Source of the DNA: an uncultured Methanosarcinales archaeon
Lineage (GTDB): Archaea > Nanobdellota > Nanobdellia > Woesearchaeales > WJKL01
DNA length: 63,617 nucleotides
Direction of reading: 5' to 3'
Assembly: GCA_964521755.1 (NCBI GenBank)
Contig: CAZFSZ010000003.1
Span: 1-63,617 of the forward strand
Shown here: positions 32,499-47,910 of the stretch, one piece after another
Position numbering within the stretch: position 1 is the stretch's first letter
Layout of the letters: the number at the start of each line of letters is the position of its first letter
Made by a program: the position numbers and the translations under genes
The notes under the pieces: model-generated
Databases searched by the model: none
Told to the model about the DNA's origin: nothing
What the model saw: only the letters and a program-made list of their open reading frames with translations

Positions 32499-35400
32499 TT
32501 AAGAAGTAGAATTTGTTTGAATTTCAATATCTTTGACTAATTCCTCTTTTTCTTTATCAAATATATTGTTCTTTGTTTTTCCATTCCAATCTACCTTCCA
32601 GACATAAATTTGTCCACCTGTAATTTGTTTTCTTTCACTAAAAAGATCAAAATATTTAGAACCATGCCCCTGAAGATAGAAAAGTTTTGTAAATGTAGAT
32701 TCAACTAATCTATAATCCATCAAGATTATTCTATAATTTCCATTTTCCAAAGGCACAAATACTGCTCCTAACTCAACATTATTATTTGTAGTTAATATCT
32801 GTCCATCAAATTCCTTGACTATAATATCCTCATCTTCAGGAATAGCTATTTTCTTTGGATATATCTTTCCTCCAGAAGAATCAATCCATGCTTCATTATT
32901 TTCAATATCTAATTTCATTCCATTATTACAGACAACTAAATTTTCTTCCTTTACACATCTTCCTTCTCCAGCATAACTTGGCCACGGAGCAATCCATGAA
33001 TCAGCCTGTCTTGTTGAAGTTATTGCCTGAACATCATAATAATATTCTTCTGCTTTTTCTTCTGAATAGTTGAATTTATTCTGGATAATTTCAACTGCTT
33101 CTTCTCTGTTTTTTACTTTTCTTAATTTATTATAGATATAAGCTCTTTTAAAATCCCAGCTTCCAAAATGAGCCCATACTCCTGATTTTCCAACCATATC
33201 CTCTGAAGTTATGTAATAATTCTCAGGAGCCTCGCAGTGTGTATATTGAATAACTTCTTCAACTTCTTCTTCAGTTATATACTCTCTTAAATAGTCTTTT
33301 GCATTTTCCTTCTCCATAACAATAATTTCATTCAATATATCAATAGATTTTACAGTATCATTTAATATATTATCCAAAACCCAAAAAGCATTGTTATTTC
33401 CACAGTCAACCATTCTTAATATTCCAACAGCTTTTTCTTCATCATTTTCCAATAAACTTTTTCCAACCCAATGAGCCATATGTCTGTCCTGTCCTCCACC
33501 GTCAAAAGTAACTCTTCTATCTGCTAAAGTAATAAACCAATGTCCGAAATCCCACCAACTATTGATTATAGCATCTTCACTTGATTTTTCTTTTATCTCA
33601 GTTAAAGTATCATACCATGCATCATTCATACTTGGAATTTCATTCTTTGCAGTTTTATTTGCTGAAGAAATAGGTCCAGCCAATAACAATAAAAGAACCA
33701 ATATCAGAACAATATTAACAACATTCTTCGGAATCTTCATCTCTTTATTGATCCATTTAGAAGCAAACTGATAAATTATTCCTGCTCCAGCTCCAAAAGC
33801 TATTGAAAAAGCAGGCACCAATAATAATACAAATCTTACTCCCTGTGTTGAAGCATAGATAGTTCCAATAAACCATACAGCAAGCAAAAAGAACTGTTTA
33901 AAATATCTCTCTCCTGATTTGTCTTTTTTTGTTAATGTAAGAGCAAGCCCTAACAATGAAAAAGCAAACAAAAATTTCCCTCCAATCTGATTTGCTATTG
34001 TTTTAATAGAAGCTGTATTTAATTCTGCAACTGTTGTTCTAATATTTGGCCAGATAGAAGTAATTCCTACTGTTTTAAGACCTGTTATTATTTTGGTCGG
34101 TTTATTGAAGAATCCATCATAAAATATATTAAAATCTTTAAATAAGGCAATAAATATTCCAGAGAAAACAACAAATATTAACAATATTATTAATGTATTC
34201 TTAACCTTTGGTTGTTTAAATAATTCCAACCAATTCTCTTTAATCTTCTTTCTATTAATAAAAATACTATAAATAAGATAGACACCAATCGCTCCCAATA
34301 TGGCATTAAAAATATACCACCATCCAGACCAAGCAAAAGCAAACAACCCAATAGATAATCCTGATAAACAAGTCAACCCAATCTTCTTTTTCCAATTTTC
34401 TGCTTCAAAAGCCTCTAAAAACAGCCAAACAGCAAGCAAAGGAAATAAGACATTATAGGCATCTGTATCTGAAAATCCTCCTGCTGTTCTTCCTAAAAAA
34501 GCAGAATTTACTGCAACCATCATTCCTGCAAAAAATCCTCCAACATTACCTCCAATTCTTTTACCAATAAAAAAAGCAGGAAGTACAGCCAATGCTGAAA
34601 TGATAACAGGAATCAGAAACATAACTCCCATCAAAGAAACATCATTATTAAAAAAACTTACAAATTTGTATAGATAACCTGAAAAATAGCTGTGAAACGA
34701 CATTGAAGATGGAGAGCCAATCGGAGCCATTCTTTGCCCATCCCAATCTTGCTTTTTATCGAAATTAATATCAGACCCTCTTCCTTCTAGATACAATTTT
34801 ATATCTTCACTAACACCATATTCTCCTCCAACATAAGTTGTTCCTGCTTGTCCATTCTCAATATAATGCCTTACATGCCTCATATAATAATAAGGATCAA
34901 TAGCTAAAAGATAGGTATTTCCGTCTTCATCTTTCATCCTTTCCTTAAAACTCTCAGCAGTAGCTTCAATCTCTTTCTCTAATCTATTTTCATTCTCATT
35001 CAAAAATTCTATAAACTGGCTTTGGATCAAGCTTTGTTTGTTGGCATCAGGAAGATTAGGATACTGCTTGTCTATATCATTCTTTATCTGATTTTGATAA
35101 AAACTATAAACACTGTTTTCTGCCCACTCTTCAGTTACAGGAAGATCAGCTGGATACATCCTAAAAAACACAGAAAAAAATACTGCAGTCAATATCAATA
35201 ATATAGGAATTGCACATTTTTTATCTTTAAAAAAACCAGATATTCTTCTAAAATCAATTGAAAGCTCTTCTGATTTTTCTTCTTCTACCTTTTCAACTTT
35301 CTCCTCTTCTTTCTCTACCTTCTTCTCTTCCCTCTCTTCCTCTTTCTTTATTTTATTTTCTTTTTTTTCCAAATCTTCTATTTTTTTCTTTTCTTTTTCT

Positions 35401-35606
35401 ATAATCTTCTCACTGTCTTCTAATTTTTCTAATCTTTCTTTTCCTTCTTTCTCTTCCTCTTTTAATTCCTCAATCTTAATCTTCTCTTCTTTAATATCTT
35501 CTTCAACTTCTTTCTCAGCCTTTTCAGCTTTAGAACTAGCTTTCTTTCTTTTGAAAAAATTCTTTATCTTTTTCAAATCAATTGAAATCTCTTCATCATC
35601 TTCCAT
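32499..35606 (-). CDS. aglB: archaeal oligosaccharyltransferase AglB (STT3 family) with a ~130-aa K/E-rich N-terminal extension
   Basis: WWDFGHW (the WWDYG motif), SDTDAY (DxD) in the first loop, about 13 TM helices and a large C-terminal soluble domain. Confidence 0.92.
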   Translation of the reverse strand: MEDDEEISIDLKKIKNFFKRKKASSKAEKAEKEVEEDIKEEKIKIEELKEEEKEGKERLEKLEDSEKIIEKEKKKIEDLEKKENKIKKEEEREEKKVEKEEEKVEKVEEEKSEELSIDFRRISGFFKDKKCAIPILLILTAVFFSVFFRMYPADLPVTEEWAENSVYSFYQNQIKNDIDKQYPNLPDANKQSLIQSQFIEFLNENENRLEKEIEATAESFKERMKDEDGNTYLLAIDPYYYMRHVRHYIENGQAGTTYVGGEYGVSEDIKLYLEGRGSDINFDKKQDWDGQRMAPIGSPSSMSFHSYFSGYLYKFVSFFNNDVSLMGVMFLIPVIISALAVLPAFFIGKRIGGNVGGFFAGMMVAVNSAFLGRTAGGFSDTDAYNVLFPLLAVWLFLEAFEAENWKKKIGLTCLSGLSIGLFAFAWSGWWYIFNAILGAIGVYLIYSIFINRKKIKENWLELFKQPKVKNTLIILLIFVVFSGIFIALFKDFNIFYDGFFNKPTKIITGLKTVGITSIWPNIRTTVAELNTASIKTIANQIGGKFLFAFSLLGLALTLTKKDKSGERYFKQFFLLAVWFIGTIYASTQGVRFVLLLVPAFSIAFGAGAGIIYQFASKWINKEMKIPKNVVNIVLILVLLLLLAGPISSANKTAKNEIPSMNDAWYDTLTEIKEKSSEDAIINSWWDFGHWFITLADRRVTFDGGGQDRHMAHWVGKSLLENDEEKAVGILRMVDCGNNNAFWVLDNILNDTVKSIDILNEIIVMEKENAKDYLREYITEEEVEEVIQYTHCEAPENYYITSEDMVGKSGVWAHFGSWDFKRAYIYNKLRKVKNREEAVEIIQNKFNYSEEKAEEYYYDVQAITSTRQADSWIAPWPSYAGEGRCVKEENLVVCNNGMKLDIENNEAWIDSSGGKIYPKKIAIPEDEDIIVKEFDGQILTTNNNVELGAVFVPLENGNYRIILMDYRLVESTFTKLFYLQGHGSKYFDLFSERKQITGGQIYVWKVDWNGKTKNNIFDKEKEELVKDIEIQTNSTS

Positions 35607-36824: not shown

Positions 36825-38078
36825 TTAGTAGTAAGTTTCTTCTTGAAGTTCTTCGTCTTTTCCTTTCAGTCTGTTAAAACCAACAATTAAGCCGATTACA
36901 ACCAAAAGTACAACAAGAACAACTAATGCAGCTTCTAGGCCTTTCTTAGCTTTATCCCAGCCATTGCTTCCAGCTTCAACGTTAGCATCCAAAGTAATCT
37001 CTTTAACTGTTTCGTCTCCGCTTTTGATAGTTAGTCCAAAGCTTTGTGCTCCTTCGCTAGCATCTTCGTTAGCTGAAACATATACATAAACAACCTTTGT
37101 TTCACCAGCACTTAGAACAGCTACATTTGGACTGATTTTTATATCTGCCCAGTTTCCTGCTTCAGCGCTTATTGTATATGTGTTTGCTGAGTTCCCAGTG
37201 TTGCTTATTGTTAATGGATAAACAGCTCCGGTTTCACCTGCTGTTACTGTCTGAGCTTCTGCACTAACAGCGATAACTGTCTTGTCTTCGTCTAATCCGC
37301 AGACATCTCCTTCAACAATATTGATTAAGAAGTTTTCAGATATTTCTTCATCTCCTTCGTCAAATTCAACAGTTACTGTTGCTGTGTATTCACCAGCTTC
37401 AGCACATTCAGGTATTCTCATCCAAAGATCTTCACTAGTTACAGAGTCTTCTTCCTCAACTTCATCAACATAATCAGAAACACTGATTCCAAGCTCAGGA
37501 ATGCTTACTCTAACCTTAACATCTTCTTCTGTCTCTTCTCCCATGTTTTTCATTCTTACTCTAGTGTACAAAGCTCTTCCAGCCTTAACCTGATTTTCAG
37601 GGTCAAAGATAACGTCTTTGATCTTCATAAGGTTCTTTGCTGGTTTAACTCTGATTATAGTTGTATATTCAACTTCTTCATCAGAATTTCTGTCACTTAC
37701 TTCAATTCTCAAAGCATACTCTTCATCTTCAACTTCCATTCTTTCTGGTAAGCTTATATAAAGAGTCTCATATCTGGTATCTCCAGCATCCATTGAGAAT
37801 TCTTCTGTCTTGTCTGTTGCTTCATCACTGTCATGGTCTGTCTCTACTGTAGCTTCTACTTTAAGAGTGTCAGAATCTTCCAGAGCTTCAAGCTTAACTT
37901 CAACCTCTAGTTCTTCTGTTCCTCTCTCTATAGCTAGATTGTCGCCATCTTCAACAACTTTGCCGTCAACGTAAACCTTTTCGATTGAAACAGGTACGCT
38001 ATCCGCATTTGCTATTCCGGAGATAGCGAACAAGCCTATTAGCATTATTGCCAATACACTTAATATTTTTGCTTTCAT
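36825..38078 (-). CDS. acidic surface protein, S-layer-like, with signal peptide and C-terminal TM anchor
   Basis: Signal peptide MKAKILSVLAIMLIGLFAISGIANA, CARDB-like beta-sandwich repeats, a C-terminal helix ALVVLVVLLVVIGLIVGF and a short charged tail. Strong GGAGGG SD. Confidence 0.6.
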   Translation of the reverse strand: MKAKILSVLAIMLIGLFAISGIANADSVPVSIEKVYVDGKVVEDGDNLAIERGTEELEVEVKLEALEDSDTLKVEATVETDHDSDEATDKTEEFSMDAGDTRYETLYISLPERMEVEDEEYALRIEVSDRNSDEEVEYTTIIRVKPAKNLMKIKDVIFDPENQVKAGRALYTRVRMKNMGEETEEDVKVRVSIPELGISVSDYVDEVEEEDSVTSEDLWMRIPECAEAGEYTATVTVEFDEGDEEISENFLINIVEGDVCGLDEDKTVIAVSAEAQTVTAGETGAVYPLTISNTGNSANTYTISAEAGNWADIKISPNVAVLSAGETKVVYVYVSANEDASEGAQSFGLTIKSGDETVKEITLDANVEAGSNGWDKAKKGLEAALVVLVVLLVVIGLIVGFNRLKGKDEELQEETYY

Positions 38079-38218: not shown

Positions 38219-39724
38219 TTAAATAACTGTTATTTCCCTATAAATTATTCTTCTCATATCATCATTGCTAAAACTTAGCTTTATTGTATATGTTCCCTGT
38301 TCTGCATATTCTGGTATTCTTAGCTGAAGGTTCTTTGAGGTTTCATCTCCATTGTTAAGGTTAAATGATCCGCTCATATCCCTTACTGCTAGTTTCTGTA
38401 TGCTTGCACTTATCTTAATATTTTCCAGATCATTTGTTCCTATATTCTCTACACTTGTTCTTATTCTTACTATATCTCCTGCCGGCATATACTCATCACT
38501 GCTTATCTTTGCTCTTACTGCAAGTTTGTTGTCTATGATTATTTCTTCATCATCTACATCATCATCATCTTCTACAATAATTGTATATGGCTGGCTGTCG
38601 CTTCCTCCATTGCCGTCTTCAACAATTACAGTAACATCATATTCTCCTTCTTCCTCAGGAACCCATTCTATCAAACCTGTTTCAGAATCAATAGTCATCT
38701 CTTGTGGTGATTCTGTTAGTGAGTATGTTAAATTATCTTCAAATTTGCCAATAAAAAAATCTACTTGATCTCCTGTAACTTCTCCTGCTTCTTCTATTAT
38801 TATGTCATTTACACCAATTACTGTACCATCTAACAATACAAACATATCTCCTTCTCCTAAATTATTGGTTAATTCACCATTAACCTCAAATTTAACTTCT
38901 GGAGAATTTCTATCAATATAATTTACTTTAACTTGGTAATTTTTTCCATCACACAAACCACTACTGGTTTCCCCTTGCTCCAAAACATCACTAAAACATT
39001 CAGATAGACTATTATTATCTGGATCATACGCATCAACATCATAATTATATCTCATTCCAACATCAGCTTCAGTTACAGGTCTTGAGGTTATTACAGGATT
39101 ATTATTATCTTCATCATCATCGCCATCATCAATTACTTCAATATTAATTCTGTCTGTATCAGTTTTTCCATCATCATCAGTTACTGTCAGTCTGATAGTA
39201 TAGACTCCTTCATCTGTATATACATGTTCTACATTAACTCCATTTCCAGAGCTTTCATCTCCAAAATCCCATTCATAGCTTACAATATCTCCGTCAGGGT
39301 CATAAGAACCGCTTCCGTCAAATACGATATTTTCATTGATCTCTGCAGAATCAACTGCTTCTATGTTTGCGATTGGTGGAAATTCATCAGGGATGTCAGG
39401 ATCATCGTCATCTCCGATTGGCCCGTCAAATGGTCCCGGACCTGGTCCTTCATCATCAATAGGTGTAAAATCATCATCTCCTTCAAAATCATAATCATCA
39501 TCACTCCAGTCATCAGTATCATCTACCCAGTCATCTGTTTCATCACTCCAGTCATCAGTATCATCTTCCCAATTATCTGTTTCATCACTCCAGTCATCAG
39601 TATCATCTTCCCAGTCATCTACCTCTCCATTTGGAATGATAGAATCCCAGCTTCCCATAAATCCTGCAGCTATAGAACTAATTAGACAAACTGCCATGAT
39701 TATTGCTAGGATTATTTTTTTCAT
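38219..39724 (-). CDS. secreted highly acidic protein with DDW repeats, a PKD domain and a CARDB-like C-terminal domain
   Basis: Signal peptide, (E/D)TDDWxDDTDDWSD repeats, PKD signature FDGSGSYDPDGDIVSYEWDFGD. The C-terminal module RIPEYAEQGTYT is shared with the neighbouring gene (RIPECAEAGEYT). Confidence 0.65.
   Translation of the reverse strand: MKKIILAIIMAVCLISSIAAGFMGSWDSIIPNGEVDDWEDDTDDWSDETDNWEDDTDDWSDETDDWVDDTDDWSDDDYDFEGDDDFTPIDDEGPGPGPFDGPIGDDDDPDIPDEFPPIANIEAVDSAEINENIVFDGSGSYDPDGDIVSYEWDFGDESSGNGVNVEHVYTDEGVYTIRLTVTDDDGKTDTDRINIEVIDDGDDDEDNNNPVITSRPVTEADVGMRYNYDVDAYDPDNNSLSECFSDVLEQGETSSGLCDGKNYQVKVNYIDRNSPEVKFEVNGELTNNLGEGDMFVLLDGTVIGVNDIIIEEAGEVTGDQVDFFIGKFEDNLTYSLTESPQEMTIDSETGLIEWVPEEEGEYDVTVIVEDGNGGSDSQPYTIIVEDDDDVDDEEIIIDNKLAVRAKISSDEYMPAGDIVRIRTSVENIGTNDLENIKISASIQKLAVRDMSGSFNLNNGDETSKNLQLRIPEYAEQGTYTIKLSFSNDDMRRIIYREITVI
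39499..39620 (-). repeat. 42-nt in-frame tandem repeat, about 2.9 copies
   Basis: catcactccagtcatcagtatcatct[a/t]ccca[g/a]t[c/t]atctgttt at 39499-39540, 39541-39582 and 39583-39620. It encodes the DDW acidic repeat. Confidence 0.85.
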
Positions 39725-39766
39725 TTTCTTGTTTTTTAATTAATTAAGTAAAAAAATAAAAATAAT

Positions 39767-40624
39767 TTATTTTTTCCCGTATTTAGGTGCTTCAAGATCA
39801 GTTATGCTCTCTAAGTAGCCATCTTCTATGTTTCTTTTTGGTTCCCCAAATACAGTTGAAGTTGCTGAAATTATTTCATAGTTTCCATTGTTGCCGTCTT
39901 TAAGATTTGAAAGATATTTTCCATCAAAGTCCCTTGATTCTGAATTATATTCTCCTTTTTCAGAAAGTTTAACAAGGTCTTCAAATGTTATTGTTACTCC
40001 AGGCATATCTCCTGTTCCGTCTGCTTCAGGCATCTCTTCAAATCTGTTTTCAAGTAATGCACTGTAATCTTTCTGCCCTAAAATTTCTTTTATATCATTG
40101 AATTTAATTCCACTGATAGTGATTCTGTTTCCTTCACTTGATCCAACTCCCCTATGTTTTCCATCATAATTAATGTGCATCATTATTCCTAGATCTACTT
40201 CTGCATTCTGATAGAAATCTTCTTCTAATGCATTATACAATGCTTCCATTTTATTTATGTTTTCTTTTGCTTCTTTGTTTCCAATACCATCTGCAATTGA
40301 AGGATGTCCTTTGATTTCACTTATTCTTTTTTTGATAGATTTAAGTGCACTTTCAGGGATATATCCGCCTAGTTCATAACCTTCTATTGTGTTCCATACA
40401 TCATTATACCCTGCTTCTGATATTTGTTTTTCTAATTTACTTTCAGTTTCATCATCACTTTTTTTTGTTTCTGTTTTTTCTTCTGCTTTTATTTCTTTTT
40501 TGACTGCTGGTTTGTTAAGTTCTTTTTCTTCTTTACCATTTCCAGCATAGATTAAAGTTCCAACAGCTGCTAATCCTGCTAATGCAGTAGTGCCGACCCA
40601 TCCTAAAATTTTTTTATTGACCAT
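39767..40624 (-). CDS. N-terminally membrane-anchored hypothetical protein
   Basis: TM helix ILGWVGTTALAGLAAVGTLIYAG, a K/E linker, then a ~200-aa acidic domain with no recognised motif. Confidence 0.5.
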   Translation of the reverse strand: MVNKKILGWVGTTALAGLAAVGTLIYAGNGKEEKELNKPAVKKEIKAEEKTETKKSDDETESKLEKQISEAGYNDVWNTIEGYELGGYIPESALKSIKKRISEIKGHPSIADGIGNKEAKENINKMEALYNALEEDFYQNAEVDLGIMMHINYDGKHRGVGSSEGNRITISGIKFNDIKEILGQKDYSALLENRFEEMPEADGTGDMPGVTITFEDLVKLSEKGEYNSESRDFDGKYLSNLKDGNNGNYEIISATSTVFGEPKRNIEDGYLESITDLEAPKYGKK

Positions 40625-40641
40625 TTTTTATCTCCTCCAAA

Positions 40642-41583
40642 TTAAAATTTTCTCCTGTAAAAGCCTTTGAATCTTCCCCCAAAACCTTGTTCGTCTTGGT
40701 AGAATCCTTCTAATCCAATGCCCCAGTGATTGTTGAATATTTTTGTGAATCTGACCTCTAATCCAATATCATTCTCTGTTTCTCCGTCAAAACCTTTTTC
40801 ATTTTCATTATATAATCCGATTAAAAGGTCATAATCTTTTCCTAATAATCCTCCATAGACAGAGACAATATCTTTTTTTGAATCACCTATTGATTCAAAA
40901 TCTGTTTTAAGCCTGTCAAAATCAATACCAGCATAGAAATCATTAAAAAATTTTTTGAATCCTAATGTAAGTGCGCTTTCTTTGTAGTCTTTTTCTTCAC
41001 CATAATCAAACTCTCCATCGCCTTGATTATAGCTGACAAATCCTTTCCAGCCATCTCCAATAAATTTAGCTCCAATTCCCAATTTGTCAACATCCATATC
41101 TTCTATTGGATAATTGTCAAATTCTGTTTTGGCTTTTCCCAATCTAACTACAGAATTTATCTTTCCCCAGTCAAATTCAAAAGGATGATAAGCTGCAGCT
41201 TGATATCCTTTTTCATTAAAATCAACTTTTCCCATATTTTCAGTATCTTGTGTTCCTCTTGTATTATATGCAAAAAAACCAAGCGGTCTGCTGCTTATCT
41301 TAGCAGAAGCATTTATAGCATTGTAATCTTCTGCTCCAACTGCTTGTAATTTAGCTAAAAGATCAAAACCATCTGTAAAAAATTCAGGAGATTCTGCTTC
41401 CTGCATTGTTTCTCTTCTTTCAGCAGGCTCTTCAGCATGAACACTTTCATTTGCCAAAAAAGGAACCCAAGCAGGTGCTGTAATCAAAGCATATCTTCCA
41501 AAATTCTTAGATGTATCTATAACTTTAGAACATGATTTTTTTACGATATCTGTTAGTTTATGTGTCATCTTATTTTTCCTCAT
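40642..41583 (-). CDS. secreted beta-strand-rich protein with outer-membrane-barrel-like features
   Basis: Signal-like YALITAPAWVPFLANESVHA. There are repeated amphipathic G/Y/F/D/N-rich strands (IGLEVRFTKIF, WGIGLEGFYQ, LGIGAKFIG, GFVSYNQG), a terminal Phe (GFYRRKF) and no TM helix. Confidence 0.45.
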   Translation of the reverse strand: MRKNKMTHKLTDIVKKSCSKVIDTSKNFGRYALITAPAWVPFLANESVHAEEPAERRETMQEAESPEFFTDGFDLLAKLQAVGAEDYNAINASAKISSRPLGFFAYNTRGTQDTENMGKVDFNEKGYQAAAYHPFEFDWGKINSVVRLGKAKTEFDNYPIEDMDVDKLGIGAKFIGDGWKGFVSYNQGDGEFDYGEEKDYKESALTLGFKKFFNDFYAGIDFDRLKTDFESIGDSKKDIVSVYGGLLGKDYDLLIGLYNENEKGFDGETENDIGLEVRFTKIFNNHWGIGLEGFYQDEQGFGGRFKGFYRRKF

Positions 41584-41687
41584 AAGTTGTGATTACTACA
41601 TGGTAGTAGTGGTTATATATAAACCTTACGGTTTTTTGAGCATTTTTAAATGGTAAATCTATCAAGAATCTCTTTTTTATAATAAAA

Positions 41688-41806
41688 TGGGGATGCTGGG
41701 ATTCGAACCCAGATCTGGTGGTATATCCCAGGTATAATTCATCGTCTTTAGACTCATCGCTCCATGACTGGAGCCACCCATTCTAGCCAGGTTATACTAC
41801 ATCCCC
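41688..41806 (-). tRNA. tRNA-Trp (CCA) with a 45-nt intron at canonical position 37/38
   Basis: Acceptor GGGGATG/CATCCCC, anticodon stem GGTGG/CCACC with loop CTCCAG|A, T arm CTGGG-TTCGAAT-CCCAG. No encoded CCA. The D stem is weak. Confidence 0.82.
41723..41767 (-). other. tRNA-Trp intron (BHB)
   Basis: 3-nt bulges AG|U and AU|A are separated by the U33-A, C34-G, C35-G helix. The inner helix is CA.GG/CC.UG. Confidence 0.7.
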
Positions 41807-41820
41807 TTATGGTAAGTAAA

Positions 41821-41828
41821 TTTATATA
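41821..41828 (+). promoter_or_regulatory. TATA box (TTTATATA) for rtcA
   Basis: 24-31 nt upstream of the ATG at 41852. Confidence 0.4.
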
Positions 41829-41831
41829 CTA

Positions 41832-41839
41832 TTTATAAA
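41832..41839 (-). promoter_or_regulatory. TATA box (TTTATAAA) for tRNA-Trp
   Basis: 26-33 nt upstream of the tRNA 5-prime end at 41806. Confidence 0.45.
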
Positions 41840-41851
41840 TATTCCTACTAT

Positions 41852-42898
41852 ATGCTCAAAATAGATGCAAGTCATGGAGAAGGCGGCGGACAGATTATCA
41901 GGACAGCTCTAGCTTTATCAACAATAACCGGAAAGCCGTTTGAAGCAAAAAACATAAGACACGGAAGAAAGGTCTCTGGATTAAAAGCTCAGCACATCAA
42001 ATGTGTTAAAGCATTAGAAAAATTAGCCAATGCCAAATCTAAATATACTATAATAGGCTCAGAGATTCTAAAGTTTACCCCAGGAAAAATCCGTCCGCAA
42101 ACATTAACTATAGATATAGGAACAGCCGGCTCTATCTCTCTTTTGCTTCAATCCCTCTTGCTCCCATGCATCTCAGCAGAGGACAAGATAATCCTAAAGA
42201 TAAAAGGAGGAACTTCTGGAAAATGGGCTATGCCTTACGATTTCTTGGCCAATGTGTTAATCCCCCAAATTAAAAGATTTACAGAATCAACAGATATAAA
42301 ACTGGAAAAAAGAGGATATTATCCAAAAGGCGGCGGAAAGATAATCCTAAAGATAAAACCTCTGGAAAAAAAGGAATTTCCCAGGATAAACAATTTAAAT
42401 CAGGAAAATCTGATCCAGATAAAGGGGATCTCTCACGCATCCAATCATCTTCAGGATGCTGAAGTAGCTGAAAGAACAGCAAAGTCAGCAAAAATTTTAC
42501 TCTCAAAATTTGATGCCCCTATTAATATACAAAAAGAATATGCAGACACCCTATCCCTGGGATCAGGGATTACCCTATGGGCAGTATTCTCCAAAGAAAA
42601 AAATGAGATAAATGTAAAAGACCCAATTATATTAGGGGCAGATTCTTTGGGAGAAAAAGGAAAAAAATCAGAAAAAGTTGGCAAAGAAGCAGCAAATAAA
42701 TTAATCAAAGAAATTGAATCAAAAGCCCCTGTTGATAAACACACCGCAGATAACTTAATTCCATTCTTGGCAGTAGCAGGAGGAAAAATAAAAGTATCAA
42801 AGATAACAAACCACACAAAAACAAATATCTGGGTATGCGAGCAGTTTCTTGACAAAAAATTCAATATAGACGAAGAAAACAACATCATTTCTGTTTAA
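41852..42898 (+). CDS. rtcA: RNA 3-prime-terminal phosphate cyclase
   Basis: HGEGGGQIIRTALALS N-terminal motif and a conserved His context (DKHTADNLIPF). 348 aa. Confidence 0.92.
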   Translation: MLKIDASHGEGGGQIIRTALALSTITGKPFEAKNIRHGRKVSGLKAQHIKCVKALEKLANAKSKYTIIGSEILKFTPGKIRPQTLTIDIGTAGSISLLLQSLLLPCISAEDKIILKIKGGTSGKWAMPYDFLANVLIPQIKRFTESTDIKLEKRGYYPKGGGKIILKIKPLEKKEFPRINNLNQENLIQIKGISHASNHLQDAEVAERTAKSAKILLSKFDAPINIQKEYADTLSLGSGITLWAVFSKEKNEINVKDPIILGADSLGEKGKKSEKVGKEAANKLIKEIESKAPVDKHTADNLIPFLAVAGGKIKVSKITNHTKTNIWVCEQFLDKKFNIDEENNIISV

Positions 42899-42918
42899 CC
42901 TTTAGAAACAGTAACATT

Positions 42919-43440: not shown

Positions 43441-46400
43441 TCATTTAGTATTTTTCTTGTTCATTTCTTTCTTTAGATAACATTTCTCAGCAAAAGCAGC
43501 TATCTCAGCTTCTAGGTTGGGAAGTTCAGATTCTCCAAAAACAGCGTCCATAAAAGGTATTATCTTTTCATCCTTTGTTTTTGCTTTTAATCTCTTGTTC
43601 TGTATTATAGATTGTATCTTTGAGGTTGCCAGTGTTTCCTGCATGCATCCAAAAGGCCCCACATGGTAGATCCCGCAGATATCATTTAATTTTCCTTTAG
43701 AAAACAGATATGTTTCACTTATAGAAAGCACACTTTCTCCTCCAACTCTTTTTTCATATACAAGTTCTTTCTGAGCATTGTTTATCATCGATTTTGGGTC
43801 ATGAGGTTTTCTTCCCTCTAGAAAATCTGAGACCGGAGCATATAATCTTTCATTTAATCCTTTCATATACCTTCCCTTTAACACAGAAGCAACATATCCT
43901 TTCCAGTCTTTCCTTTCCTTGTATTTTTCTATACTGTCTTTATTTACATATTCAAGCCACTGACTGGGCATACCAAGTATAACCTCTAACCCGTATTTTT
44001 CAAGAAGCCTTATTGATGCCTGATTTGCCATCTCATGGCATCTTACAAATATTTCTCCGTTCATCACAACCACAGGTTTCCTTTCTATACTTTTGTCTAT
44101 TATATTCTCAAAATTTTCCGCAGCATTCTTCATGAATTCCCTCAGCTCTTTTGTTTTCCCTCCTTTTTCAACTATTTTGTACAGCTTTTTCTTTAACTTT
44201 TCATATTCTTTGTCAGCAAGCTTTCTTTCCTTCTCATAAGGCCTTGTTCTCAACAGCATATCATATAATATATCACTGCAGAAGCTTCCTTTGTAAAACA
44301 ACGCAGATAACTTTGCCAGCTCTAGTTTAGATACAGGAACATTTGTATAGTCAACCTCACAGTCAGGAGATATGACCGGCACATCTTTAAAGCCGTTCTT
44401 ATCAAAAAACTTCCTCATCATCACATGATACTGCCCCTGTCTGCACGGCCCTTTTGTCTGTGGTTCAAATACTGCTGCCTTTTTATTTGGGTCAATCCCT
44501 TTTTTTGATAGCCCATAAAGCCATGCAAGATGATCTCCTACCTGGAATGAAAAAGGCCTGCATGTGTTTGTACTTACAAATTTTCTTGCCATCTCCTGTG
44601 ATTTTTCTGTTCTTGTAGGCATTACTTCTGAATTAAATCCTCTTGCCCTGAATGAAGCAGCAAGTACATTTGAATCATCCCCCATATAAGGGATACCTAT
44701 AATCCTATTTTTCATCTCAGCTTCAGGTATATTGTTGTAAAAATCACATATCTCAACTTTTTTTGGAGTGTGTTTTTTAACAACCTCCCAGTTAGCCAAA
44801 GTTCTTGTTCCAAACTGTGCATTGCTGTTGTGCCCGTCTGTCTGCAAAACCAGATAAGGTTTCTCAGCCTTGTTTATTATTTCCTCTTCATGATAAAGCA
44901 GCAGAGAGTCAGTTCCGCAGTTAAAATTAGTCTCTCTTACAGGATACATCAGAGGGTCCATCGCAGTCATAAGATTATATTTTATCATGCTCTGCCCCTG
45001 ATACCAGTACATGTTGTCAGCTATCTTAGATAAATCAATTTCAGGAGCTTTCAAAAAGAATGAAGGTATAAAATGAAGCCCGTAAGAGGCAAACAATTCA
45101 TGCACTTTTGAGCTTGCCTTGTCATCTAATATAGTATATCCTCTTCCTATTCCTATAAATATCTTTTCTCCTTTTTCTTTCAGATTATCAACAAGCTTCT
45201 TTCCTGTTGAATACACCTTTTCCAGAAATTCCTTTTCAGCTTTTTTTGCATCTTCAACAGCTTTCTTGACTTTCTCAATGCTGAATCTTTTATCAAAAAC
45301 CCGGTTTAAGTCATTTAGGATGTCTTTTTCAATCTTGTTGTCTGGATCATCAAAGTTTATCACAGGAAGCAGAACATCATCATTATCAAGGCTTAGCGCA
45401 TCTTTTATCAAAAAACCGCTTCCCCCCACATAAGGGCAGAACCTGTATTTCTTTTTTCCAGAACCTATAGTATTTACTAAAAATATCTTATTCCTTCCTT
45501 TTCTTAGATATCTTTTCAGATAAGCACAATGTCCATATGCTAATTTGATGGGATAACATGTTTCAGGATGCGCATGGTTTATTCCAAGATTTGCAATCTC
45601 ATCGTCTGATTCAGGGCTTATCCCTATATCAAACCCAAGCTTATTGTACAATGCTGTATAAAAAACACCTTTTTCATTCAAAAAAGTAAGGCTTCTTGGA
45701 ATCAATATCCTTTCATTGCCTTCTTTATTTTCTTCCAGATTAATACTGTATTTTTCAAGATGTTTGTTTAATATCTTTTTGTACATCTCAACATAATTCA
45801 GGGTTTTTTTAACATAAGTTGATGTATTTCCTTTTGGACACAAGCCCCCTGAATAGATAACATCATCTCCTATCTTATAAACCTGAAGCTTGCAGTCCCT
45901 TACTCCGCAGGTATCATCTACAATCCTGCTGCAGTTCTCTATTTTTTTCTCAAACTTCATGTCAGCGATATCCAAACCCCTAAATTTACTTTCAAATGAA
46001 ATGTCTTCTTTTTTCAGCCTCTCAATCTCATCATACACAGCAATCACAGCACCCAATGCCCCAAAAAGCTGCCTGTGAGGAAAAGCATGTATCTCCATAC
46101 CTGAATGCAATGCCAGTGCAGCCAAACATGATTTTCCGTTGAAAGGCCCCCCTTGTGCAGAGGCATAATCCCCAAATTTCTCATTTCCTACAAACTTGTT
46201 GACATAACCCCCCATAAATCCAAAGGCGATGGCAGCTGCTATCTCTTCTTTAGGAAACCCCATTGCTATAAGTTTTGAGATTCCTGCTTCTGTAAAAACT
46301 CCGCAGGTTTCATCTACAACAGGGGTTTTTTTTGCTTTTAGTGCATATTCATGGAATGTTGTCTTGATATCAAGTCCTACCATCTCAACCATGTTGTGCA

Positions 46401-47910
46401 TAGTCTGCCCAGTGCCGGCCATACAGCTGAGGTTCATCTTTGATTTTTTTACTGTTCCGTCTTTGTTAAAAAGAGTGAATTTTGCATCCTGACCTCCAAG
46501 TTCAAAGATTGTATCAACATTCTTGTTAAAATGCTTTACTCCAAATGCATGGCAGGTAATCTCATCTTTTACAATATCAATACATTTTTTCTCAGGATTT
46601 TTCTTTAAATCAGTGAAAAGCTTGTGATAAAAAGCACCAGAACTTCCTGTATAAGCAGTCCCTTTTATCTCTATCTTATCTCTAAGAAATTCTCTTATCT
46701 GCCTGAACATCTCCTGTGCAGTCTGCAGAGGCTTTCCGTTTGTATAAAGGCATATCTCAGCGATTATCTTTAAGTTATCAGCATCTGCGATTATAGCCTT
46801 TGTTGTTGTGCTTCCTCCATCCACCCCTATCAGCACATCTTTTTCAGGCTCATTATATATAGTAAGGTCATCTTTCTTTGCAATAGCATACTCTTCTTCA
46901 TATATCTTTACTTTATCTAAAGCAGAGGACAACGGAGGGGCTGTCTTTATCTTTTCTTTTTCAGCTTTAGCAATAGAGCCTAACCTTTCTATATCTAATA
47001 TTTTCTCAGTTCCTTTTGCCTTTACAGCAGCACCGATAGCTCCAACTTTTTTATAATTTTCAGGAACTGAGATTTCAACTCCAAGCTCTTTCTCAAGCAT
47101 ATCAACAAAAAATCTGTTTCCAAAAACCCCCCCTGTTGCAGCTGCTTTTTTGTTTTTGTCCAAAAATCTTGTTTTGATAACATCGCTTTTATAGTTCTTT
47201 GCGATCCTTAAAAACATCCCTTTGAGAATATTCTTTATCTGTTCTCCGCTGTTCTGAAGGTGTATCATATCTGACTGTACAACAACTCCGCATCTTCCTC
47301 CTACATCTATGTCTTTGTCTGATTTGGATATCTCTTCTTCAGTTCTTTTGAACATCTTGATCAGGTTTTCCTGAAGCGCTTTTCTGTTGTCTTTCCTGTT
47401 CTCTCCTATCTTCCCTTTTTCTAGAAATTCGTTTTCAAAAAATCTTCTGCACTGCTTTGTTATCAATATTCCAGATCCTCCTCCGCATTTTGTTCCGGTT
47501 CCATGATCAGGCACAAAACTTTTGTATCCATCTTCTGTCTTTACTTTTTCTCTTTCAAAGAAATAAGGGTCTTTTGCTCCTATATGAAAAATATAATCAG
47601 CATCTTCTGCTGCTATCCCTGCTCCAGCAGGTATCGCAATAGTGTCATGAAAAAAAGGCATTTCTGTTTTTTCAGCTATAAACTCTCCAACACTGCCTGT
47701 AAATGCAGTTGTAGCTATCTTTCTTCCATACTTTGAGATTATATCTTCATAGATATCCTTCAAAGCCTCGATAGGATTTCCAAAATGCATCACTGATTCA
47801 GACGAATATATTATCTTTCCTTTTTCATCTAAAACAACAGCATGAACAGAATCACTGCCCGCATCAAATCCTGCAGTATATTTGTTAATACCCATAACTA
47901 AAGAAACCAT
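43441..47910 (-). CDS. fusion of two BcrAD/BadFG-type activase ATPase domains with DUF2229 and HgdB-like (2-hydroxyacyl-CoA dehydratase-like) domains
   Basis: ASKHA phosphate-1 motifs GFDAGSDSVHA and GVDGGSTTTKA. Cluster-Cys contexts GTKCGGGSG/GRCGVVVQSD and SCMAGTGQT/ETCGVFTEAG. The C-terminal half is rich in conserved-looking Cys (ETCYPIK, NCGTDS, NTCRPF, GPFGCMQE). Confidence 0.78.
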   Translation of the reverse strand: MVSLVMGINKYTAGFDAGSDSVHAVVLDEKGKIIYSSESVMHFGNPIEALKDIYEDIISKYGRKIATTAFTGSVGEFIAEKTEMPFFHDTIAIPAGAGIAAEDADYIFHIGAKDPYFFEREKVKTEDGYKSFVPDHGTGTKCGGGSGILITKQCRRFFENEFLEKGKIGENRKDNRKALQENLIKMFKRTEEEISKSDKDIDVGGRCGVVVQSDMIHLQNSGEQIKNILKGMFLRIAKNYKSDVIKTRFLDKNKKAAATGGVFGNRFFVDMLEKELGVEISVPENYKKVGAIGAAVKAKGTEKILDIERLGSIAKAEKEKIKTAPPLSSALDKVKIYEEEYAIAKKDDLTIYNEPEKDVLIGVDGGSTTTKAIIADADNLKIIAEICLYTNGKPLQTAQEMFRQIREFLRDKIEIKGTAYTGSSGAFYHKLFTDLKKNPEKKCIDIVKDEITCHAFGVKHFNKNVDTIFELGGQDAKFTLFNKDGTVKKSKMNLSCMAGTGQTMHNMVEMVGLDIKTTFHEYALKAKKTPVVDETCGVFTEAGISKLIAMGFPKEEIAAAIAFGFMGGYVNKFVGNEKFGDYASAQGGPFNGKSCLAALALHSGMEIHAFPHRQLFGALGAVIAVYDEIERLKKEDISFESKFRGLDIADMKFEKKIENCSRIVDDTCGVRDCKLQVYKIGDDVIYSGGLCPKGNTSTYVKKTLNYVEMYKKILNKHLEKYSINLEENKEGNERILIPRSLTFLNEKGVFYTALYNKLGFDIGISPESDDEIANLGINHAHPETCYPIKLAYGHCAYLKRYLRKGRNKIFLVNTIGSGKKKYRFCPYVGGSGFLIKDALSLDNDDVLLPVINFDDPDNKIEKDILNDLNRVFDKRFSIEKVKKAVEDAKKAEKEFLEKVYSTGKKLVDNLKEKGEKIFIGIGRGYTILDDKASSKVHELFASYGLHFIPSFFLKAPEIDLSKIADNMYWYQGQSMIKYNLMTAMDPLMYPVRETNFNCGTDSLLLYHEEEIINKAEKPYLVLQTDGHNSNAQFGTRTLANWEVVKKHTPKKVEICDFYNNIPEAEMKNRIIGIPYMGDDSNVLAASFRARGFNSEVMPTRTEKSQEMARKFVSTNTCRPFSFQVGDHLAWLYGLSKKGIDPNKKAAVFEPQTKGPCRQGQYHVMMRKFFDKNGFKDVPVISPDCEVDYTNVPVSKLELAKLSALFYKGSFCSDILYDMLLRTRPYEKERKLADKEYEKLKKKLYKIVEKGGKTKELREFMKNAAENFENIIDKSIERKPVVVMNGEIFVRCHEMANQASIRLLEKYGLEVILGMPSQWLEYVNKDSIEKYKERKDWKGYVASVLKGRYMKGLNERLYAPVSDFLEGRKPHDPKSMINNAQKELVYEKRVGGESVLSISETYLFSKGKLNDICGIYHVGPFGCMQETLATSKIQSIIQNKRLKAKTKDEKIIPFMDAVFGESELPNLEAEIAAFAEKCYLKKEMNKKNTK

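Follow-up and report, generated by a model that had tools for sequence, protein, structure and literature searches.

The 63,617-nt window analysed here (contig CAZFSZ010000003.1, positions 1 to 63,617, of assembly GCA_964521755.1, from an uncultured archaeon placed in the Woesearchaeales by the Genome Taxonomy Database, GTDB) encodes a small protein, hereafter the barrel protein, whose predicted fold is that of a bacterial outer-membrane protein (OMP). Transmembrane barrels of this type are treated as a hallmark of the outer membranes of bacteria, mitochondria and plastids, and they are not expected in archaea. The gene is native to the archaeal chromosome, and with moderate to good confidence its product is predicted to form a closed antiparallel meander of 14 strands that resembles OmpG and CymA. 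Tentatively, we favour the reading that it is an exported single-chain barrel of the OmpG/CymA type, which may be embedded in a membrane as a channel and act at contact with another cell. The source archaeon itself is probably host-dependent or symbiotic. An earlier note, made from the sequence alone, had singled out the gene as an outer-membrane-porin-like candidate. The 313-codon open reading frame (ORF) is indeed present and contains the signal-like segment, the eight strand examples quoted in that note and the C-terminus GGRFKGFYRRKF.

The structure was predicted with AlphaFold2 (AF2) from a six-sequence alignment of the barrel protein and its five relatives (P0002 to P0006). The model has a mean predicted local distance difference test value (pLDDT) of 71.4 and a predicted template modelling score (pTM) of 0.74; residues 1-61 are disordered, and pLDDT amounts to 74-87 per 10-residue block over residues 71-313. 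It contains 14 antiparallel strands between residues 74 and 312, each 10-20 residues long and joined by connections of 1-5 residues, where about 12-14 strands had been counted before. The predicted structure is a closed barrel of the outer-membrane type and neither a sandwich nor a propeller. In a VIA-align comparison with 48,161 representative chains, OmpG (2f1c) was aligned with Z 22.6 and a root-mean-square deviation (rmsd) of 3.2 Å over 234 residues, CymA (4d5b) with Z 22.2 and 2.7 Å over 237 residues, and FadL, PorV, TodX and 14-strand chains associated with the beta-barrel assembly machinery (BAM) with Z 17.6-20.8; the best 50 of the 48,161 chains were all bacterial outer-membrane barrels. 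Foldseek returned at least 500 matches against the PDB, of which 398 reached E ≤ 1e-3 and OmpG ranked first (E 1.3e-9); among the matches listed all are bacterial outer-membrane proteins except the artificial metalloprotein 9j9n. Likewise, the protein-language-model neighbours (score 0.95) are without exception bacterial OMPs, namely Fusobacteriota OMPs, OmpG, KdgM, porins and autotransporters. A beta-pore-forming toxin of the haemolysin or aerolysin type was considered as well and rejected, as one chain makes the whole barrel in the model and no such toxin is found among the best 50 chains.

The strands of the model show the face pattern of an OMP, hydrophobic and variable on the outside, polar and conserved on the inside. 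The nine residues of each AF2 strand nearest the short turns (Table 1) and the termini were taken as the belt zone, and residues were assigned to the outer or inner face by sequence parity. In this zone 49 of 66 outward residues are hydrophobic versus 19 of 60 inward ones, a difference that was reached by none of 1000 shuffles; family-wide, the hydrophobic fraction is 74% on the outer and 27% on the inner face. Near the turns none of the 66 outward positions is Asp or Glu; farther along these strands, in their distal halves, 15 of 35 are. Conservation is higher on the inner face (mean 0.72 versus 0.55), which also holds 14 invariant residues versus four. The inner set includes K78, K95, K173, K180, K210, D74, E136, N143, Y132 and Y258, the outer one consists of H133, F135, G140 and A172. 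In the most conserved motif, YHPFEFDW, parity places Y132 and E136 on the lumen side and H133 and F135 on the outer face. Of the short turns within the barrel, six in number, five have an aromatic residue at or beside them (W139, W179, F216, Y251, W287), and alternate hydrophobic runs over five residues stand out in the family (17, reached by 5 of 500 shuffles). On this model, a hydrophobic belt around the barrel is probable. A soluble binding barrel, which had also been suggested, agrees poorly with a lumen that is polar and conserved and an outer band that is hydrophobic and free of acidic residues.

Compared with an ortholog of 81% identity, the barrel gene gave a ratio of nonsynonymous to synonymous substitution rates (dN/dS) of 0.30 across 307 codons, which indicates a coding frame under purifying selection. 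Met6 (ATG at 41568) is a likelier start than the first ATG and gives a protein of 308 residues: it is the start in the public gene model P0001, the sequence reads GAGG 9 nt 5' of it, and the alignment with the ortholog in L001 likewise begins there. The TATA-box-like element TTTATATA is a candidate archaeal promoter of the barrel gene and the partner gene that follows it.

The source genome comprises 1.25 Mb in 126 contigs and is 92% complete; the barrel gene is present in a single copy and has a GC content of 0.34, the same as its surroundings. The gene order BcrAD/DUF2229 protein (1470-1489 aa), aEF-1beta, RtcA, barrel gene, partner gene is also found in two Woesearchaeota metagenome-assembled genomes (MAGs; L001 and L002). 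A third genome, G129, is unpublished, and the synteny claim for it rests on that source: here the order RtcA, barrel gene, partner gene is kept with aEF-1beta beside RtcA, and a TRM-like methyltransferase, not the BcrAD/DUF2229 protein, lies beyond aEF-1beta. Furthermore, the region is covered by independently assembled contigs from three DNA runs of one microbial-mat metagenome study. One contig of 24 kb is identical over 39584-42900, and the source sample itself may be its origin. The junction of partner and barrel gene (40494-40760) and the junctions of barrel gene, tRNA gene and RtcA (41313-41810 and 41490-41869) are bridged by short contigs from two further samples. Because of the synteny shared with archaeal genes in four MAGs, the bridging contigs and the dN/dS of 0.30, assembly chimerism or bacterial contamination is very unlikely, in line with what the earlier note had argued from the flanking genes and had proposed to verify by contig continuity. 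One of these flanks, a tRNA-Trp gene with an intron directly upstream of the barrel gene, is real; it was detected by Rfam and by ARAGORN with option -i, and default ARAGORN found no tRNA in the whole window. The second, AglB, is partly right: an AglB/STT3 gene exists (32499-35606, E 9.5e-42), but some 5 kb separate it from the barrel gene. Further archaeal neighbours recognised by Pfam are RtcA, aEF-1beta and a geranylgeranyl-reductase-like flavoprotein.

As a separate observation, the 1489-aa protein encoded on the minus strand at 43441-47910 consists of two BcrAD_BadFG ATPase regions and a DUF2229 region, as in CoA-enzyme activases. It is conserved beside aEF-1beta in L001 and L002, and it is unusual for a DPANN genome of 1.25 Mb.

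An exhaustive HMMER scan of 1,835,955,588 representative proteins yielded five relatives with 37-81% identity. Those that could be placed (P0002, P0004 and P0006) are all from Woesearchaeota genomes, and P0003 and P0005 carry no taxon. Word-indexed sequence searches and profile searches added no further member, and a scan of metagenome contigs with the family alignment found no locus. The family is present in four of 401 genomes sampled from the order, within one GTDB family (three of its six other members) and two genera, and in two of 401 genomes sampled across the phylum; the hit in G129 comes from an unpublished genome. The query matched no Pfam family at E ≤ 1 and no NCBIfam family, and a sequence search of the PDB gave nothing. 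None of the six members matched an OMP family in Pfam at E ≤ 10, Porin_OmpG (PF09381) included, and a profile search of the PDB with the family returned no OMP; the match to OMP families that the earlier note had led us to look for was thus not obtained. A Halocin-8 N-domain match in one of the six members (E 0.16) was dismissed as chance. By these searches the family is new in sequence, very small and lineage-specific, and its predicted fold class is a known one.

Consistent with the earlier note, a classical transmembrane (TM) helix is lacking, as the Kyte-Doolittle mean does not exceed 1.08 over any 19-residue window. The only hydrophobic stretch of the protein is Y31-A44, which forms the core of a candidate export segment preceded by 30 residues in the query. 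All six members have Asp or Glu after a small-x-Ala site, which reads VHA, VNA or FGA. P0003 to P0006 carry 70-130 extra, mutually conserved residues ahead of the hydrophobic segment, which are absent from the query and P0002; this extension contains the motifs KYSQNSQ and TENGF and has no family match. Because of these 70-130 preceding residues, and with its N-in layout of basic residues ahead of it and acidic ones behind, the segment of the extended relatives resembles a signal anchor more than a classical signal peptide. The export segment may accordingly be cleaved off as a signal peptide or stay as a weak signal anchor.

At the other end of the protein, an aromatic residue closes the last strand in all six members, the position whose conservation the earlier note had proposed to examine. 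The likeness to a bacterial beta-signal is only partial: Phe is the last residue in four members, whereas the chains of P0004 and P0005 finish with a short basic tail, and no Omp85 protein was found to read such a signal. Following the aromatic residue, a basic tail was noted in five of the six. The beta-signal follows the pattern GxxΦxΩ, and a similar pattern fits two of the six members (P0003 and P0005).

The barrel gene sits in what its annotated neighbours indicate is a cell-envelope neighbourhood (Table 1). Downstream and in the same orientation follow the partner gene, a PKD-domain protein, an S-layer-like Ig-domain protein, the geranylgeranyl-reductase-like enzyme, AglB and a GT2 glycosyltransferase. 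For the partner, positional counterparts in three other MAGs align at 24-67% identity, one row being from the unpublished G129. The partner model has a pLDDT of 65.2, with part of the underlying alignment again from G129. No Pfam, NCBIfam or Atlas match was obtained for the partner, its best fold matches are generic helical bundles (Z 9.1), and a sequence search recovered one homologue only. Counterparts with an identity as low as 24-30% still retain the motif Y..L...F ... GN.IT. The PKD protein is conserved beside the slot in relatives. It starts with an acidic tandem repeat of DDW/DET-type units whose length and number differ (501 aa in the window versus 412 aa in L001, 4672-5910), and midway along the protein the window copy has about 90 additional aa compared with the L001 copy.

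Table 1. Features of the barrel locus and genes filling the corresponding slot in related genomes.
Feature	Position	Strand	Details
Barrel-protein coding sequence	40642..41583	-	313 aa from first ATG; stop codon 40642-40644; from ORF list
Predicted 14-stranded antiparallel barrel	40645..41364	-	Residues 74-313; short turns RP, DW, DG, ND, GKD, FNNH; AF2, VIA-align, Foldseek
Most conserved motif YHPFEFDW	41167..41190	-	Residues 132-139, end of strand 4 and turn 2; Y132, H133, F135, E136, D138 invariant
Acidic linker	41365..41433	-	Residues 51-73, conserved ESPxFF(S/T)D, between export segment and strand 1; low pLDDT, short helices 53-62
Candidate export segment	41434..41499	-	Residues 29-50; basic n-region, short hydrophobic core Y31-A44 (two prolines), V-H-A before acidic residues
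TATA-box-like TTTATATA	41616..41623	-	About 35 nt upstream of first ATG; read from sequence
tRNA-Trp(CCA) with 45-nt intron	41688..41806	-	Directly upstream of barrel gene; Rfam RF00005, 44.7 bits; ARAGORN -i
Partner gene	39767..40624	-	17 nt downstream of barrel gene; 285 aa; N-terminal hydrophobic segment, K/E-rich linker, three-helix bundle (58-140), alpha/beta domain
PKD/He_PIG/CARDB secreted surface protein	38219..39724	-	501 aa, 42 nt after partner gene; PKD_4 E 1.2e-32
Ig-like (FixG_C / NPCBM_assoc) surface protein	36825..38078	-	417 aa; signal peptide, C-terminal TM anchor; S-layer-like; kept in L001 and L008
Slot in genome G311 (L013, C31)			790-aa TM/coiled-coil protein and 511-aa protein
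Slot in genome G206 (L015, C23)			Permease and 851-aa protein
Slot in genome G345 (L014, C48; unpublished)			Among other genes, 1376-aa coiled-coil TM protein and 305-aa protein

The barrel gene is absent from G311, G206 and G345, three genomes of the same GTDB family, where unrelated genes fill the slot beside RtcA. A large Ig-like surface protein follows the slot genes in G311 and G206, the one in G311 being homologous to the PKD protein of the window (E 1e-21); in the stretch of G345 that was read, no Ig-like surface protein was seen. Because the slot holds unrelated genes in these sister genomes, the pair of barrel and partner gene appears to be one of several interchangeable surface cassettes. 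The replacing 790-aa protein of G311 is not similar to the barrel protein. The idea of a module swap on a shared anchor was dropped as well, since the N-terminal region of P0004 showed no similarity to this 790-aa protein (E 0.14). One of the large TM/coiled-coil proteins that replace the pair carries PAEK repeats.

On the reading that we tentatively favour, the N-terminal hydrophobic segment would direct Sec passage across the cytoplasmic membrane and would then be cleaved or kept as a tether. The tethered or released barrel may enter the membrane of a partner or host at cell contact, and the acid-free band would allow embedding in lipid, though not in the cytoplasmic membrane of the cell that makes it. 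With its polar, lysine-bearing lumen, the barrel could then let solutes pass passively, with a probable preference for small ones that are anionic or polar. A contact role is preferred to that of a housekeeping porin because the gene occupies a variable surface slot and neither Omp85 nor any other OMP family was found in the genome.

Several observations weigh against a lipid-embedded barrel. The parity that defines the two faces was read from the sequence and chosen for hydrophobicity, and tests that disregard the strand assignment do not separate the query from shuffled sequences. With 9-residue windows having at least four of five alternate residues hydrophobic, OmpG scores 12 (reached by 0 of 200 shuffles) and the query 4 (137 of 200); two relatives, P0006 at 12 (2 of 200) and P0004 at 10 (5 of 200), do pass. 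Alternate runs over seven residues number 10 in OmpG (0 of 300), 4 in the query (173 of 300) and 6 in the family profile (54 of 500). Of the closed barrel with a hydrophobic belt that the earlier note had asked for, the barrel and an acid-free hydrophobic face near the turns are seen in the model, and the strand-blind tests did not single out a belt in the query. Compared with OmpG, the band has more glycine and is less thick, with about 4-5 alternate residues, and the putative lipid face bears the invariant H133 as well as Lys and Arg. The model rests on six sequences, and two of the five AF2 models are poor (pLDDT 71, 69, 68, 55 and 33). No sequence homology to any OMP family was found in Pfam, NCBIfam or the PDB profile search, and hhalign against E. 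coli OmpG gave a probability of 0.7%. Finally, no Omp85/BamA (PF01103) was detected at E ≤ 1 in the 92%-complete genome by a search that was positive in 8 of 14 named control genomes. Gcw_chp, KdgM and OMP_b-brl (PF09694, PF06178 and PF13505) had no match in this genome either. An insertion machinery for such a barrel is not known, and unaided membrane crossing would be costly, because the distal strand halves are long and highly charged.

Some of these points suit a real barrel that is not embedded in lipid, its band packing instead on protein, be it a homo-oligomer, the partner or the S-layer, so that it would act as a structural pore or a ligand-binding module. The thin, glycine-rich belt and its failure in the strict belt tests would be expected here, and so would the invariant His and the basic residues on the outer face; the conservation of the partner gene and the position of the barrel gene among S-layer-like and PKD surface proteins, with AglB nearby, are also in favour of it. 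However, an outer face that is 74% hydrophobic near the turns and free of acidic residues at all 66 positions over 14 strands goes beyond what a local interface needs, and the best 50 structural matches include no non-membrane structure. We consider a protein-packed barrel unlikely.

A shallow alignment, together with an alternating residue pattern, could also have produced the barrel model as an artefact, the protein then being a soluble secreted beta domain such as a sandwich, a solenoid or a single-layer sheet. The six sequences, the two AF2 models of low confidence and the Atlas recognition value (2021, under the mark of 2300 that is reached by 91 in 100 known families) are in favour of this, and period-2 amphipathicity is equally strong in the soluble Ig-like neighbour (z 3.3, versus 2.8 in OmpG and 2.0 in the query); the period-2 hydrophobic moment was for this reason discarded as a test for OMPs. 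On the other hand, three AF2 models agree, with a pLDDT of about 80 over 240 residues and the pTM given above, a single topology accommodates the strand register, the short turns, the turn aromatics, the acid-free band and the conservation of the inner face, and the language-model neighbours are exclusively OMPs. Taken together, an artefact appears quite improbable.

A housekeeping porin of an archaeal outer membrane, in a diderm lineage of Woesearchaeota, would share the OMP-type fold and have the termini and short turns on the same side, as is predicted here. According to reviews, two membranes have been reported in some DPANN-type archaea, with ARMAN, Ignicoccus and Altiarchaeum as the lineages named (PMC4243693, PMC8871954), and another paper mentions a possible distal relative of the porin PopA in the DPANN-associated Altiarchaeales (PMC12228718). 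Residence in an outer membrane of the cell itself is less likely, though, because the genome, 92% complete, has one copy of the gene and yielded neither another OMP family nor Omp85, and the cassette is replaced: the barrel is absent and the slot otherwise filled in three of six sister genomes of the same family, one of them from a barrel-bearing genus. In addition, the C-terminus of the S-layer-like neighbour is an anchor for the cytoplasmic membrane, as is usual in monoderm archaea. A housekeeping role thus seems distinctly improbable.

Least of all do we expect that a bacterial porin gene was acquired laterally in recent times, as the earlier note had considered for a lateral transfer, and is perhaps without function in the archaeon. 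The fold class is otherwise bacterial or organellar, and a survey dismisses archaeal hits to outer-membrane beta-barrels (PMC8346858), but searches of 1.84e9 representatives and 5.8e9 clusters turned up no relative in bacteria, all placed relatives are from Woesearchaeota, the GC content matches the surroundings, the gene is conserved (33-81% identity) and selected across two genera, and its architecture, with the N-terminal extension and the conserved partner gene, is of archaeal style.

With its predicted OMP fold in a small genome where no Omp85 was found, this native, conserved and selected gene raises two questions, namely how such a barrel would be inserted without BAM and into which membrane. 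If the barrel resides in a host membrane, it would offer a concrete molecular entry point to the way DPANN cells draw on their hosts; if it resides in an outer layer of the cell itself, it would bear on how often diderm envelopes arose. The broader proposal that DPANN archaea own BAM-free barrels of the outer-membrane type, the present family being a tethered or released 14-strand channel that the symbiont places in the host membrane where the cells touch, to draw small anionic metabolites, and being either independent in origin or unrecognisably diverged from bacterial OMPs, is doubtful on the present evidence. With about 260 residues after the export segment, the protein is small and could easily be expressed and tested.

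The setting of the barrel is unusual in comparison with known systems, as it combines an archaeon, a genome in which no BAM was found, an N-terminal extension, a conserved partner and cassette behaviour. In the portions of the literature retrieved, no archaeal OMP-type beta-barrel was described beyond the remark on Altiarchaeales in PMC12228718, and the survey text cited above attributes archaeal hits to errors or non-functional transfers and calls functional barrels 'very unlikely' (PMC8346858). The structural match to PopA of Bdellovibrio bacteriovorus (9gf0) is more distant (Z 12.1), and the likeness is one of functional analogy, with no homology shown: PopA is a pentamer with a lipid-trapping chamber that is made with BAM and resides in a true bacterial outer membrane (PMC12228718).

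Among archaeal pores, Ihomp1/Imp1227 of Ignicoccus hospitalis is the one pore former known to have been described from an archaeal outer membrane. It is alpha-helical, a small oligomer without a beta-barrel, and unrelated to the barrel family. Judging by its title, a 2007 paper by Burghardt et al., listed among the references of PMC4243693, reportedly describes it. Closer in structure are the 14-stranded monomeric channels CymA (the cyclodextrin channel of Klebsiella oxytoca), FadL (1t16, Z 19.4) and TodX (3brz, Z 17.6), which show no sequence similarity to the barrel protein. In these channels an N-terminal segment enters the lumen, and the barrel protein has the conserved ESPxFF(S/T)D just before strand 1; an N-terminal plug is only a possibility here, because this segment is modelled at low confidence.

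The best structural match is E. coli OmpG (2f1c, 2iwv, 2wvp), with 234 of 252 residues aligned and a template modelling score of 0.69 normalised to the target (Foldseek). Unlike OmpG, the barrel protein belongs to an archaeal host in which no Omp85 was found, has relatives with a long N-terminal extension and would possess a lysine-rich, conserved lumen. Both proteins are of similar size, and in the model the barrel protein shares with OmpG the single-chain meander of 14 strands, the short turns on the side of the termini and a wall that extends beyond the belt.

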